A stretch of 14,504 nucleotides of DNA from a virus (lineage: Duplodnaviria > Heunggongvirae > Uroviricota > Caudoviricetes), in the IMG/VR virus record IMGVR_UViG_2529292834_000008, positions 1-14,504 of that record; one strand, written 5' to 3'. Below, one piece after another: positions 3,001 through 8,537 of the stretch; position 1 is the stretch's first letter, and each line of letters opens with the position of its first letter. The position numbers were made by a program.

Positions 3001-6000
3001 GGTATTTCATAACCCTCGAGTTCTGGTGGAGCCGGAACCGAAAAGCATGCATGGTCTGCCGTCCGGAGTCGTTCCTGCTGTTCGCCAGCCGCTGGCGGAG
3101 GATAAATCATTACTGCCATTTTTCAGCGATGAGCGGGTGATTCGTGCTGCTGGTGGTGCTGGTGCATTGTCTGACTGGCTGTTACGCCACGTTAAATCCT
3201 GCCAGTGGCCTCATGGTGACTATCATCACAGTGAAACCGTTATTCACCGTTATGGTACTGGCGCAATGGTGTTGTGCTGGTACTGCGACAACCAGCTGCG
3301 TGACCAGACTTCTGAATCACTCGGGCAGCTTGCTCACCAAAACCTGTCAGCATGGATGATTGATGTCATCCGCCACGCAATGAATGGCACGCAGGAGCGG
3401 GAATTATCGCTGGCTGAATTATCCTGGTGGGCGGTCTGCAATCAGGTGGCGGACGCGCTACCAGAGGCAGCATTACGTCGTTCTCTGGGGTTACGTGCGG
3501 AAAAAATTCGCTCAGTATACCGCGAGAGCGACATCGTGCCGGGAGAGCAGACCGCCACCAGCATGCTGAAGCAGCGCACAAAAAATCTTGCGCCGCTGCC
3601 TCACGCCCACCAGCAACAGAACCCACCACAGGAAAAGACGGTGGTCAGCATTGCCGTTGATCCTGAGTCTCCGGAATCTTTCATGAAACGACCTAAACGT
3701 CGCCGCTGGGTTAACGAGAAATACACCCGCTGGGTGAAGACACAGCCGTGTGCGTGTTGTGGTAAGCCAGCCGACGATCCCCATCACCTGATTGGTCATG
3801 GTCAGGGCGGAATGGGGACAAAATCTCACGATATTTTCACGCTACCGCTGTGTCGGGGGCATCACAACGAGCTTCATGCGGATCCGCTGGCGTTCGAAGA
3901 AAAGCATGGTTCTCAGGTTGATTTAATTTTTCGTTTTCTTGATCACGCCTTTGCAACTGGCGTGCTTGGGTAAAAGAGGTGACTGATGCTCATAGATTTG
4001 GTTTTACCTTACCCGCCGACGGTGAACACTTACTGGCGACGCCGTGGCAGCACATATTTTATCTCGGAGGAGGGAAAGCGTTATCGCCGGGCTGTGGCGC
4101 TTATTGTTCGCCAGCAGCGGCTGAAATTAAACCTGTCCGGAAGGCTGGCGATAAAGGTGATTGCAGAGCCACCGGATAAACGTCGTCGTGACCTGGACAA
4201 TATCCTGAAAGCACCACTGGATGCACTGACACATGCGGGGTTGCTTATCGACGACGAGCAGTTTGATGAAATTAATATTGTGCGCGGTCAGCTTGTTCCT
4301 GGTGGGCGGTTGGGGATAAAAATCACAGAACTGGAGTGCGCATGAATAACCAGTATTTACAGTTTGTTCGTGAGCAACTCATGATTGCCACCGCCGATTT
4401 GAGTGGATCAACAAAAGGGCAGCTTGAAGCCTGGCAGGAGAATGCCATGTTCGATACAGGGCGTTACAGGCGAAAAAAAATCCGGTACCGCGATGAAGTG
4501 ACTGGAAAAATGATAACGCGGGATAATCCACCAATCCCGGGAAAGCAATCGCTGGCGAAAGGTTCATCAATTGCCCTGGTCAGTCCGGTTGAGTTTTCGA
4601 CATCATCATGGCGACGCGCCGTTCTGTCTCTTGAAGAGCATCAGAAGGCGTGGGTGCTGTGGGTATACAGTGAAAATCCGAGTTGGGATTATCAGGTGGT
4701 CATTGCGAAATGGGCGTGGGATAAGTTTCAGGTGCATTTTGGCACCAGAAAAATTACAGGGAAAACGCTTGAGCGTCTGAAGAAATTAATCTGGCTGGCG
4801 GCGCAGGATGTCAGGGGGAGGATTACTGGGCGTGACGTCTACCAGCGACAGGAACTTGCCAGACTGTGTGGAGTTAAGCCTGACAACTGGAGCCATAATT
4901 ATGCGAACTACTGGCGTGAGATGTGCGACATTTTTAAGAAACTCGATACAGAATCCTTGATTTGCACCGTGAAAATGAGATCGCAACAAAAAGCGACCTT
5001 TTCACGACGAGATATTGCAAAAGTCAATTAAATCGCATACATTTTATGTAAATGTGATATTTTGCCGTATAGTGTGTAAACCCGCTTAAATGCGGGTTTT
5101 TTGCTTAACTCTGTGGACCTTTTTATCTGTAGTTGTAAGATATGGATATTCTTACAATTTAGGTCGGTGAGCTTAATGGAAGAACAGCACGGTAATTACT
5201 TTATAAAACGAATTCAGTTGATTGGAAGGGGTGCATTTGGCTTTGTTGAACACGTTAAGGTTTACAACCTCAACAAGGGTGAATGTGGGGATTATGCTAG
5301 AAAGGTTTTAGCCCCCGAAAAACCAGAGCTTTTGGCGCAAATAGAGCAGTTTAGAAGGCGTTTTAAAAGGGAGGTCGTGTATCAATCACATTGCGTACAT
5401 AGCAATATTGTTCCTATTTATTTGTGCGATTTGTTTGCCGAGAATCCATGGTTCATTATGGATAAAGCAGAATGTGATCTTGAGCACGAAATAACGAACA
5501 ACCTTCTTACAACAGATCAAAAAATTTCAATAGTGAAAATGGTATTAGATGGTGTAGCTCACATCCATGCGAAAGGCTATTTACACAGAGATATAAAACC
5601 ATTTAATGTCTTGCGATTTAGCGACGGAACATACAAGGTGTCTGATTTTGGTCTGGTAAAAGATACAAATCCCGAAGGGGATACCACTAAATTGACCGAG
5701 ATCGGTACCCGTATGGGAAGTACAAGATATATGGCTCCCGAGATTTTATATAATGCCGAGTATTCAGTTAAGACTGATGTTTATGCGGTGGGGCGGTTAA
5801 TTGAGGACTTAAATTTAGATGATAAAAAAATAAAGCCTATCATAGCGAAGTGTACCAGGATGGATAAAGATGATAGATATCAGACAATAGATGATGTGGC
5901 GTTTGATTTTGTGCATTCTTTTTTAAGGAGTGAGTCATGATTCAGCTGATAGCGACTTCATCATTCTCGTATCCAAAAGAACCAGGTAGGGTCAACGAAG

Positions 6001-8537
6001 ATTCATTGCTTCCTCCCAAAATTGTAGGGGATGGCATCTTATTTGCCGTAGCTGATGGTGTAGGTTCATACACTGGTGCCAGTCAGGCTTCATCAATGGC
6101 AATTGCTGAACTTTCAGCATTGACAAGCTTATCTTTTGACACAGTTCCGGATGTATTTGATGAAGTTAAGCGAAAGGTTATGTCGTTAGCTGATGTTAAT
6201 GATGAGTTCGATAAAGCTGCTACTACACTTACGTTTTGTTATGTTTGTGATAGCGGAATTATTATTGGTCATATTGGTGATTGTCGTTTGTATTGCATTG
6301 GAGAGAAGAAAGCATACCAATTGACGAAGGACGATACCAGGCATCAGATGCTAATTGATCAGAATATTTTTAAACCCAGAGATTTGAAGGATAAACCGGG
6401 CAAAAATATCTTAACGACGGCTATAGCCTCAAATGTTGATATGGAATACGACTGTGATTTTATCACATGGAAAGATTTACCTAGTATTAACGGGGTATAT
6501 CATCTGTGTATCATGTCTGATGGGGTTCATAACGTTTGGGAAAAACGCCCCAGATTTACATCAAATACGATGAGTAATAGTCAGAAGTTTTCTAATGGCA
6601 TTTTGCGTCGTATAGAGAGAGCCGGACCTGATGATGACTTTTCTTTAGTAAGTATAATGGTGCGTGTGACGTCAGATTAGTTGTATAAACTCAGTAGGGA
6701 ATGCTAATTTCACATACAACATAGTTAAAGAAAACTTAATTTTAATGTAAAAAGGCTGCCCTCAGGCGGTCTTTTTATGCTCGAAAATTGATGCAGTACG
6801 TTAAACGCGCTGGTGGTTGCGAATACCGGTCTTTCAGCTTGCTGGCTTTTTAGACAAGAGTTATTGGTATGTCACGTTAACCAGAAAAGGGAAAAAGACA
6901 TGCTAAAACAGCAGGATATGACCGAAACCGCCAGAGTGGTGTTTAATGAATTAAGCGTCACCGAACCGGCGACCGTCGGGGAAATTGCGCAGAATACTTA
7001 CCTTTCACGCGAACGCTGCCAGTTAATCCTGACCCAGCTTGTTATGGCGGGTCTGGCAGATTATCAGTTCGGTTGTTACAGACGCCTTCTGCAGTGAAGG
7101 CTTTTTAATTTGTGGTAATGGGCGGCTGGTGGGTGTTAGCGGCACCTGCCAGCCATCTGCTCATGCGTTGGGGTCACAAGCAAACCTCAGGCCCATCTGC
7201 TTTGCGCAAAAGCAGTATGAGCCTATCAGAGAAGTGCTTATTGATCTATGACTAATACTGTAAAAATATCCAGTTGTGAGTTAATCAACGCTGATTGCCT
7301 GAAATTTATCCAGACCTTACCGGAAAACTCTGTCGATCTGATAGTCACAGACCCGCCATACTTTAAAGTGAAGCCCGAGGGCTGGGATAACCAGTGGGAG
7401 GGCGACGATGATTACCTGAAATGGCTGGACCAGTGTCTGGCGCAGTTCTGGCGGGTACTGAAGCCTGCCGGAAGTCTTTACCTGTTCTGTGGTCATCGCC
7501 TGGCATCTGACACCGAAATCATGATGCGTGAGCGCTTTAATGTGCTGAACCACATTATCTGGGCGAAGCCGTCCGGACGCTGGAACGGGTGCAATAAGGA
7601 AAGTCTGCGGGCGTATTTTCCGGCAACAGAGCGCATTCTGTTTGCAGAACATTATCAGGGACCGTATCGCCCGAAAGATGATGGCTATGTGGCACAGGGG
7701 CGCGAGCTAAAACAGCACGTCATGGCCCCGCTGATTTCTTACTTTCGTGATGCGCGTAAATCACTGGGAATAACGTCAAAACAGATAGCGGAAGCCACCG
7801 GAAAGAAAAACATGGCTTCGCACTGGTTTGGTACCAGTCAGTGGCAGTTACCGAACGAGGGTGATTACAACAAATTGCAGGCGTTGTTTGCGCGTGTTGC
7901 GGCAGAAAAACATCAGCGCGGGGAACTGGAAAAACCACACCACCAGCTGGTCAGCACATACAGTGAGCTGAACCGGCAGTATACGGAATTGCTGAGTGAA
8001 TATAAAAATTTGCGGCGGTATTTCGGTGTGACGGCGCAGGTTCCGTACACCGATGTCTGGACGCATAAACCGGTGCAGTACTATCCAGGGAAACATCCGT
8101 GCGAAAAACCGGCAGAAATGCTGCAGCAGATAATCAACGCGAGCAGTCGTCCGGGAGACCTGGTTGCAGATTTTTTTATGGGTTCAGGTTCAACGGTAAA
8201 AGCGGCGATGGCACTGGGGCGTTGTGCGATTGGTGTTGAGCTGGAGACAGGACGTTTTGAACAGACAGTCAGGGAAGTTCAGGATTTAATCGTTTGAAAC
8301 GGATGAGATTGCAGAATTAATTACGCACCATTATTATTCTGCTCCCGGCCCTTTAGCTCAGTGGTGAGAGCGAGCGACTCATAATCGCCAGGTCGCTGGT
8401 TCAAATCCAGCAAGGGCCACCAACCGTCACCAGTTCATCAGGAAAGAGCGTCAACCCTTTAAGTTGAGTGTGCGAGGTTCGAGTCCTCGGTGGCGGGCCA
8501 GTGCCGACTTAGCTCAGTAGGTAGAGCGACTGACTTT

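Follow-up and report, generated by a model that had tools for sequence, protein, structure and literature searches.

A linked kinase and PP2C phosphatase gene pair as mobile cargo of temperate phages, found after the antiterminator gene Q of a lambdoid prophage

The viral DNA considered here (14,504 nucleotides, positions 1 to 14,504 of the IMG/VR record IMGVR_UViG_2529292834_000008, its whole length being referred to as the window) belongs to a lambdoid prophage of E. coli and carries, downstream of the late antiterminator gene Q, a protein kinase gene immediately followed by a PP2C phosphatase gene. Across the loci compared, this pair is an obligately linked and co-evolving gammaproteobacterial family under strong purifying selection and, judging from its genomic contexts, the cassette formed by the two genes is mobile accessory cargo of several temperate-phage slots. 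No study of this pair was found, and a temperate-phage cassette reduced to one kinase gene and one PP2C gene appears to be undescribed. A search of 5.8 billion proteins returns the kinase as a discrete family of ~250 residues present in Enterobacterales, Vibrionaceae, Aeromonas, Pseudomonas, Xanthomonas and Pasteurellaceae, while the pair itself is widespread in prophages of Gammaproteobacteria that include Escherichia, Cronobacter, Yersinia, Hafnia, Enterobacter, Pantoea, Vibrio, Aeromonas, Pseudomonas, Xanthomonas and Pasteurellaceae. The PP2C family parallels that of the kinase in taxonomy and size, and its representatives (50%-identity clusters) at E<=1e-30 number only 19 among 1.84 billion. 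The PP2C is the next gene in 65/65 IMG/VR loci encoding a full-length family kinase (33-100% identity), as against 0/15 of the IMG/VR loci with unrelated kinases. A 4-nt overlap between kinase and phosphatase genes is present in 28 of the 42 non-redundant loci, the two lying at most a few nt apart in the others. Furthermore, the identities of kinase and PP2C to the window pair are tightly correlated (r=0.97), and dN/dS values are low for both genes (0.03-0.04 for the kinase, 0.08-0.12 for the PP2C). The 120 listed kinase homologues measure 217-284 residues and match the same two Pfam families as the window kinase, apart from two extra kinase-type Pfam matches. At the DNA level, the phage collection holds nothing near-identical to the window, and the exact 14.5-kb stretch is absent from the complete E. 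coli genome set, in which the best match reaches 73% coverage and 96% identity. RefSeq product names for both proteins are already correct. A cross-species scan with degenerate patterns (HRDxKPxN, YKxSDFGL) returned 80 loci with generic Hanks kinases, none of which belongs to the family, and was set aside.

The window kinase is assigned as a single-domain Hanks-type RD Ser/Thr kinase. It matches Pfam Pkinase (PF00069; E 2e-33, 116.4 bits for a cut-off of 31.7) and PK_Tyr_Ser-Thr and no other family, so that no domain besides the kinase is reported. The motifs GRGAFG, YARK (K43), E66, HRDIKPFN, DFG and APE can be read directly in the sequence. The catalytic residues G17/G19/G22, K43, E66, H137-R138-D139-K141-N144, D157-F158-G159 and P188-E189, as well as D201 and R234, are invariant in 24/24 aligned family kinases (43-75% identity), and the same alignment shows almost no variation at T174 of the activation loop. 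The AlphaFold2 model (pLDDT 88, pTM 0.85) leaves the activation loop (residues 162-179) disordered, and Foldseek aligns it with PknB, BTK and Src (probability 1.0, TM-score ~0.72). The fold is close to those of S. aureus PknB (4eqm) and M. tuberculosis PknB, and the structure search with this model returned generic protein kinases alone, giving no pointer to function. Regarding the phosphatase, it matches PP2C_2 (PF13672; E 2e-14, 54 bits for a cut-off of 24) and the NCBIfam Stp1-type PP2C profile (E 1.4e-26), and its nearest solved structure is M. tuberculosis PstP (1txo). The metal-binding motifs D22, D40-G41, H112-G114-D115-R117, D195-G196 and D233-D234 are invariant in 30/30 members. Based on motifs and model, both proteins look like probable active enzymes. 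The PP2C also matches phrog_5650 over positions 273-520 of 565, so that fused kinase-PP2C genes or merged gene calls may exist among the phage members of that cluster; the 120 best PP2C homologues include no fusion. The TGA of the kinase (5938-5940) overlaps the ATG of the PP2C (5937-5939) as ATGA. A preliminary description made from the DNA letters had proposed a 254-residue kinase with complete Hanks motifs and no extra domain, coupled through ATGA to a PP2C phosphatase, and Pfam, the open reading frame (ORF) table and direct reading bear out each of these points. Its count of about 8 ATA and 10 AGA/AGG codons in the kinase is exact (8 ATA, 5 AGA, 5 AGG, in addition to 13 AAA), and both genes are as AT-rich as it reported, besides being rich in rare codons: their GC content amounts to 0.383 (kinase) and 0.394 (PP2C), compared with 0.48 for Q, 0.51 for the methyltransferase and 0.55 for DUF968 and terL among the backbone genes.

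The two genes reside in an inserted block whose ends were set by alignment to the empty site of the APEC O18 prophage (L182) and to cS51a (L090). The APEC O18 prophage is devoid of the cassette and possesses the same Q family, a single terminator, and the same orf65, methyltransferase and tRNA genes. Its homology with the window reaches GATATTTTGCCG (end 5067) and resumes at ~6745-6750, at the second terminator of the window, hence the approximate limits given in Table 1. The GC content of the insert is 0.37-0.39 against ~0.50 in its flanks. Of the ~348 E. coli genomes with a related Q allele, only 48 match the window sequence past ~5067. The segment ending at 5067 is putatively assigned as the late-promoter (pR') region, in which GATATT (5056-5061) and TATAG(T/A) are conserved in the divergent relatives L020 and phiES15. 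Downstream of it, the terminator T1 folds with -13.5 kcal/mol (z -3.95 against shuffled controls; terminator scan and RNA fold) and its sequence is of the type found at tR' in cS51a, in L020 and in Cronobacter phage phiES15. On the other side of the pair, the terminator T2 (-18.3 kcal/mol, z -5.9 against shuffled controls) is the allele that also forms the sole terminator of the Q-orf65 interval in the APEC O18 prophage. By this alignment, the cassette insertion point is between the pR' region and the resident tR', and T1 is a second tR'-type terminator that travels at the 5' end of the cassette. The proposal that a cargo of foreign composition had been inserted right after Q and tR' is thereby upheld by both the empty-site comparison and the base composition. 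As for the extent first put forward (5105-6776), the insert is real, its left end being further out (~5068) and its right end falling before the backbone terminator (~6748). The Q-orf65 slot is variable, because different cargo sits there in another strain: E. coli WP5-S17-ESBL-10 (L181, 3105-4136) holds another two-gene cargo encoding 75 and 265 residues. Enterobacter prophages (L171, L172) have yet other ORFans after Q. The pR'-tR' slot of lambdoid phages may therefore be a place to seek other Q-gated cargo.

A wider range of slots emerges from 45 non-redundant loci, classified by Pfam and local profile searches on longest-ORF gene calls with partial profile coverage. The cassette is located after Q and before the lysis genes in 9-11/45 loci, behind two unrelated Q families (PF06323 and PF03589), and after Rz/endolysin and before the terminase in ~11/45, phage Flotzy and prophages of Enterobacter and Pantoea being further examples of this second arrangement. 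It lies directly 3' of the cI repressor gene and on the same strand in 6/45 loci, the gaps, which include -15 and 16 nt, being terminator-free, and after cI-N in 1/45. This cI-proximal slot is also the stk slot of phage 933W, as read from the 933W record, and that of lambda rexAB; the relatives found there are predicted to be expressed in lysogens. Other contexts are prophage ends, a position beside a PM2-like Vibrio prophage, an IS-rich Pseudomonas island (IS, insertion sequence) and the neighborhood of a NACHT NTPase in Xanthomonas, the non-prophage contexts being drawn from contigs encoding named homologues. In 30/44 loci, the 220 nt past the PP2C contain a terminator, compared with 22% of 543 control ORFs (p=8e-10), and promoter-like sites upstream of the kinase are not enriched across the family (13/44 loci, 11.1 being expected from shuffles). 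The typical mobile unit would thus comprise kinase, PP2C and terminator, without a detectable promoter, and would land in whichever phage operon. The window is an exception in that its 3' terminator is the backbone tR', the cassette supplying the 5' terminator instead.

Megablast detects the cassette in 50/5426 complete E. coli genomes, always in a chromosomal lambdoid prophage and in unrelated pathotypes. The idea that it might be a housekeeping pair in a conserved chromosomal context, raised at the outset, does not agree with this prophage-only distribution. The genes decay unevenly in these 50 genomes: the same frameshift truncates the kinase next to an intact PP2C in 5, an N-terminal deletion affects the kinase next to an intact PP2C in 1, and IS elements are present in both genes in 1, while an intact kinase with a broken PP2C is found in 0/50. 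In strain STEC388 (L185, 3289-5516), an IS1A-associated deletion removed the early region including Q and ends 25 nt 5' of the kinase ATG, and both cassette proteins are identical to those of the window.

Regarding function, we tentatively favor a role in phage-phage conflict (superinfection exclusion or abortive infection), possibly coupled to the control of prophage development, and this reading falls somewhat short of probable. It is ranked first because of its fit with the logic of KKP and of the hint given by the decay pattern. The exclusion or host-takeover switch put forward in the preliminary description, with the phosphatase as antagonist, is likewise plausible and receives some backing at the family level from the relatives in cI operons and from decay variants that are all kinase-dead. 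KKP (PfpC-PfkB-PfkA) has been described in Pf6 and in P2-, P4- and Mu-like prophages (Guo et al. 2024, PMC11341870) and comprises two kinases that are jointly toxic and a PP2C that serves as their antidote (PMC11341870). T4 Gp59 inhibits the KKP PP2C, thereby freeing the kinase activity and blocking phage production (PMC11341870), and the system also tunes prophage induction via phosphorylation of MvaU (PMC11341870). A comparable logic fits the window pair because of its RD kinase, its co-translated PP2C, their strict linkage, the mobile and patchy spread of the cassette and the existence of relatives in cI operons. RD kinases generally require phosphorylation of their activation loop, and the PP2C of the PknB/PstP and Stk1/Stp1 pairs removes phosphate from that loop in its partner RD kinase. 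If the window pair behaves likewise, the PP2C would hold the kinase, with its conserved T174 in the activation loop, and the kinase substrates in the dephosphorylated state. Any event that tips this balance, such as the binding of a competing phage protein to the phosphatase, would then release broad Ser/Thr phosphorylation of host or phage proteins. Phage growth would be blocked as a result, and the pair would represent a two-gene, toxin/antidote-like counterpart of the three-gene KKP. The end result would be the same as for 933W Stk or Stk2. A more specific and rather doubtful version of this scheme is that of a minimal "KP" module, a self-buffered and promoterless futile cycle that would fire when an invader protein disables the PP2C, and that would act wherever a temperate phage transcribes it, be it in the cI, N, Q or lysis operons. 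If this were true, no simpler kinase-based immune sensor would be known, and its trigger and effector would form a new pair. A kinase-based anti-phage system of just two genes and single-domain proteins would be the easiest in which to study how a kinase/phosphatase balance senses infection and which phosphorylations stop a phage.

The expression signals of the window are among the points that weigh against a defense role, which we gather here. A scan detects no sigma-70 consensus promoter between T1 and the kinase start (5100-5175), with the limit that weak or non-consensus types may escape it, and mainly Q-dependent transcription is predicted because no promoter was found in this interval. 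Lambdoid pR' is constitutive. In this prophage, the bulk of the expression of the pair would depend on Q, with RNA polymerase reading through both terminators; lysogens would receive at most a trickle by terminator read-through, and the ATGA overlap would set the kinase:PP2C ratio. Since it stands behind a strong terminator with no recognizable promoter, the window cassette is probably silent in the lysogen, which is where a defense gene should act. Late operons account for about half of the classified contexts. The decay asymmetry amounts to just two independent events in 6 genomes. The PP2C returns no significant match with PADLOC profiles, and the kinase matches that PADLOC reports, among them the best PD-T4-6 profile (E 1e-34) and the Stk2 profile (E 5e-28), do not establish membership of mad6, PD-T4-6, Stk2 or MkoA, as they concern only the generic kinase core of longer profiles (the PD-T4-6 profiles have 292-547 positions, of which the window kinase covers about the first 200-250). 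The alternative cargo of the same slot in the WP5-S17-ESBL-10 and Enterobacter prophages has no Pfam or PADLOC match either. Literature searches on this pair by protein accession, phage name and kinase/PP2C/defense topics returned no study. One IMG/VR locus (L066) combines an intact kinase with a frameshifted PP2C; it is indistinguishable from a sequencing error and was used neither way.

These same expression signals would suit a late lytic function, which we consider unlikely, if still a serious contender. The kinase would phosphorylate host or phage proteins after Q has acted (for example translation, envelope or nucleoid proteins) and so improve virion production or the timing of lysis, in the manner of T7 gp0.7 at a late stage, while the phosphatase would limit the extent or duration of the modification. 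Placed behind a strong tR'-type terminator and without promoter, the window cassette would be the first coding unit of the Q-dependent transcript, and thus the first late genes transcribed on induction. Approximately 20/45 non-redundant contexts are in late operons, after Q or Rz, and always co-oriented with them; the after-Rz loci have no terminator between Rz and the kinase, and upstream sigma-70 sites show no enrichment (13/44 vs 11.1). The A-ending rare codons also match the tRNA genes located just downstream in the late operon. Yet the cassette is also found in cI operons, behind N, at the ends of prophages and in non-phage islands, where a purely late role would make no sense. Moreover, the cassette is dispensable, being absent from ~300 E. 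coli prophages that have a related Q followed by the same genes, and an antagonist co-produced at a fixed ratio would be odd for a plain takeover enzyme. Were this reading nonetheless correct, the window would offer a rare case of a temperate coliphage that reprograms the cell by reversible phosphorylation.

Two other features of the distribution, the proximity to regulatory genes and the nature of the host strains, bear on further readings. Many relatives adjoin cI, N or Q, which are regulatory hubs, and carriers hold several lambdoid prophages, the 14.5-kb window matching a median of 8 places per E. coli genome. The balance between the two enzymes could accordingly set the phosphorylation of a host nucleoid or silencing protein or of a phage regulator and tune the maintenance or induction of this prophage or of co-resident lambdoid ones, for which KKP, acting via MvaU, is the precedent. 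We hold this to be improbable: no target can be inferred, the family is also present in non-prophage islands and beside tail-fiber or terminase genes, and the kinase differs from those of KKP in having neither a DNA/RNA-binding nor an FHA domain. As for the host strains, carriers include enterotoxigenic E. coli (ETEC; E24377A, O6:H16), enteroaggregative E. coli (EAEC) 55989, and avian and uropathogenic (APEC/UPEC) strains, the base composition of the cassette is moron-like, and the cassette is intact in the decayed STEC388 prophage that lacks Q after the IS1 deletion. Lysogenic conversion affecting host physiology or virulence (in ETEC, EAEC or extraintestinal pathogenic E. coli, ExPEC), or an addiction module stabilizing the prophage post-segregationally, in either case to the main benefit of the host or the element and with no anti-phage role, would account for these observations. 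This is the least probable of the readings considered, in view of a patchy 1% spread over unrelated pathotypes and environmental isolates with no pathotype association, of the lack of a secretion signal or effector-type domain in either protein, and of the kinase being knocked out in 6/50 genomes.

The role in phage-phage conflict thus remains the one that we favor, and lysogen expression of the pair may differ between carriers. In two Yersinia pseudotuberculosis prophages (L005/L006, 7650-9575), the cassette follows a PF03589-type Q after a 330-nt gap with a near-consensus promoter (TTAAAA-18-TATAAT) and without a terminator upstream; a terminator lies 20 nt past the PP2C, ahead of the holin. 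In these prophages, the pair may belong to the constitutive pR'-to-tR' unit, which would lead to its expression in lysogens. Within the leader of the window kinase, a 10-bp hairpin (5131-5159) keeps its stem in the ML35 allele via a double change from G-C to U.G, and the minimum free energy fold partly pairs the Shine-Dalgarno region (5166-5171) with 5109-5120. This hairpin was not retained as a regulatory RNA, the z score of the whole leader being only -1.0 and the single compensatory change of ML35 being too little. Rfam reports no family within the cassette, even at E<=1.

The remaining genes of the window follow a lambdoid plan (Table 1). Upstream of the cassette are DUF968 and RusA genes, then the PF06323-type Q. 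Downstream of the pair come the backbone orf65 and then the methyltransferase ORF, with no second kinase. The preliminary description had placed the pair between Q/tR' and the lysis genes; this holds, with the correction that orf65, the methyltransferase and the tRNA genes intervene too. It had also equated this position with the cargo slot of Stx phages. The Q-to-lysis interval is indeed common to both; in Stx phages the stx genes are downstream of the tRNA genes, and the cassette is 5' of them. In many E. coli prophages (APEC O18, cS51a, STEC388), orf65 and the methyltransferase gene are found together. The tRNA with anticodon CAT is annotated as tRNA-Ile in RefSeq relatives and would read ATA, and the late-operon tRNAs of the window read codons ending in A, of which the AT-rich cassette has many (in the kinase, ATA occurs 8 times and AAA 13 times). 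The tRNAs of ML35-type relatives are Ile/Arg/Arg instead, which fits the AGA/AGG load. A fourth ARAGORN tRNA call (8424-8500) is unconfirmed by Rfam.

Other accessory genes are found on both sides of this region. Close to the start of the window, an AbiH-like ORF on the minus strand (303-914; PF14253 E 6e-48, PADLOC AbiH E 2e-20) encodes 203 residues that cover profile positions 1-183 of 260. This ORF has probably been truncated by an IS, because it is short and abuts an IS3-family transposase fragment (91-306; rve_2/rve_3). The nin-like region contains a hok/sok type I toxin-antitoxin system, with a sok RNA at 1310-1485 (Rfam, 122 bits) and a Hok ORF at 1423-1635 (PF01848, E 3e-23). It is followed by a Fic/Doc-family ORF (2040-2534; PF02661 E 7e-12), one relative of which is annotated as a death-on-curing toxin. 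The 75-residue ORF that precedes the latter (1803-2030) has no family match and may be its antitoxin. Finally, a second AT-rich patch (10400-11000, GC 0.39) with small ORFs at 10441-10650 and 10774-10989, neither with a family match, separates the lysis genes from the small terminase gene, which is the cassette slot of phage Flotzy and of the Enterobacter and Pantoea prophages.

Table 1. Positions of the cassette, its signals and the adjoining genes in the window
Feature	Position	Strand	Details
Late antiterminator Q, backbone gene	4336-5031	+	PF06323 Phage_antiter_Q, E 5.2e-84
Putative late-promoter (pR') region	5016-5067	+	homology with APEC O18 and ~300 other prophages ends at 5067
Inserted block, ~1.68 kb	5068-6748 (approximate)	+	5' terminator, leader, kinase, PP2C, 3' untranslated region
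Terminator T1, tR'-type	5078-5103	+	8-bp GC-rich stem 5078-5085/5092-5099 and U-tract
Kinase ORF	5101-5940	+	ORF table; from ATG 5176, 5176-5940, 254 residues
Kinase leader (5' untranslated region)	5104-5175	+	
Kinase Shine-Dalgarno sequence	5166-5171	+	GGTGAG
PP2C Shine-Dalgarno sequence	5925-5930	+	AAGGAG, six bases 5' of the ATG
PP2C (PPM) Ser/Thr phosphatase	5937-6680	+	247 residues; PP2C_2 and Stp1-type profile matches
Terminator T2, resident backbone tR'	6747-6778	+	stem 6747-6760/6765-6778, core GGCTGCC/GGCGGTC, U-tract 6772-6776
orf65, 65-residue ORF	6900-7097		phrog_331, weak TrmB-like winged helix
Terminator of orf65	7084-7101		
Orphan N6/N4 DNA methyltransferase	7248-8297		in the late operon
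tRNA genes	8347-8656		in the late operon; anticodons CAT, TTT, TCC
Lysis genes	9071-10156		two holins and M15 endolysin; terminase genes further downstream

The pair can be compared with several groups of known systems. The closest solved structures belong to the Stk1/Stp1-type pairs (PknB/PstP, PrkC/PrpC) of Firmicutes and Actinobacteria, which differ in many aspects: their kinases have transmembrane and PASTA domains, the phosphatase gene precedes the kinase gene, and they are core genes in a cell-wall context, near-universal in a species. A housekeeping pair of this type is rejected for the window, as the scores are far under the NCBIfam cut-offs (104 bits for PknB_PASTA_kin vs 450, 93.5 for Stp1_PP2C_phos vs 230) and as the cassette is restricted to prophages in 1% of E. 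coli genomes. The core yegI-yegK locus is excluded by the presence of the cassette in 50/5426 genomes, YegI/PphC being compared by distribution only. Lambdoid morons and late cargo (lambda bor/lom, stx) resemble the cassette in their low GC content, their position between otherwise adjacent genes and their bounding by terminators. The scans detect no sigma-70 consensus promoter belonging to the cassette and, unlike stx, it is located between pR' and tR' and not 3' of the tRNA genes.

To our knowledge, kinase-based anti-phage systems are few (Stk2, 933W Stk, PD-T4-6 and KKP), and a phosphatase partner is known to us only in KKP. PD-T4-6 is reportedly an anti-phage kinase (Vassallo et al. 2022 are said to have described it), as is staphylococcal Stk2 (reportedly Depardieu et al. 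2016). Both are single-gene systems with extra regions and no PP2C partner, the Stk2 profile having 500 positions. The original PD-T4-6 (RRM76169.1, 436 residues, 1311 nt), compared here by PADLOC profiles and length, is a kinase with a C-terminal extension, as against 254 residues for the window kinase. Regarding the Stk protein of Stx phage 933W, which is reported to exclude HK97, the link proposed in the preliminary description is weak. Both are Ser/Thr kinases of lambdoid phages and belong to the same PHROG (phrog_2361, a remote-homology cluster), and the Stk slot 3' of cI is also occupied by 6-7/45 relatives of the cassette. Beyond this, BLASTP reports only 26% identity over 210 columns in the C-lobe (E 1e-13 as a single comparison). 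Stk is a 348-residue, non-RD kinase (HFD instead of HRD) without a phosphatase partner, encoded in the pM-cI operon, while the window cassette follows Q; by identity, catalytic motif, length and slot, the window kinase is not of the 933W Stk type.

KKP, the only characterized prophage kinase/phosphatase system that we know of, was compared by description. Both it and the window pair associate prophage-borne Hanks kinase(s) with a PF13672 PP2C in one operon, and both are found mostly in Gram-negative prophages and other mobile elements. They differ in that KKP has three genes in the order PP2C, kinase, kinase, whereas the window has two, the kinase preceding the PP2C with an ATGA overlap. Of the two KKP kinases, one is fused to an FHA domain and one to a cold-shock domain, toxicity requires the two domains, and the genes measure 900-1300 bp (PMC11341870); the 254-residue window kinase has neither domain. 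The pair is consequently not a KKP system, its gene number, order and domains being different, and the searches run with the window pair returned no KKP-like relative. Nevertheless, in the logic of a kinase restrained by a co-encoded PP2C, the closest characterized analogue of the pair, by this comparison, is KKP and not Stk.

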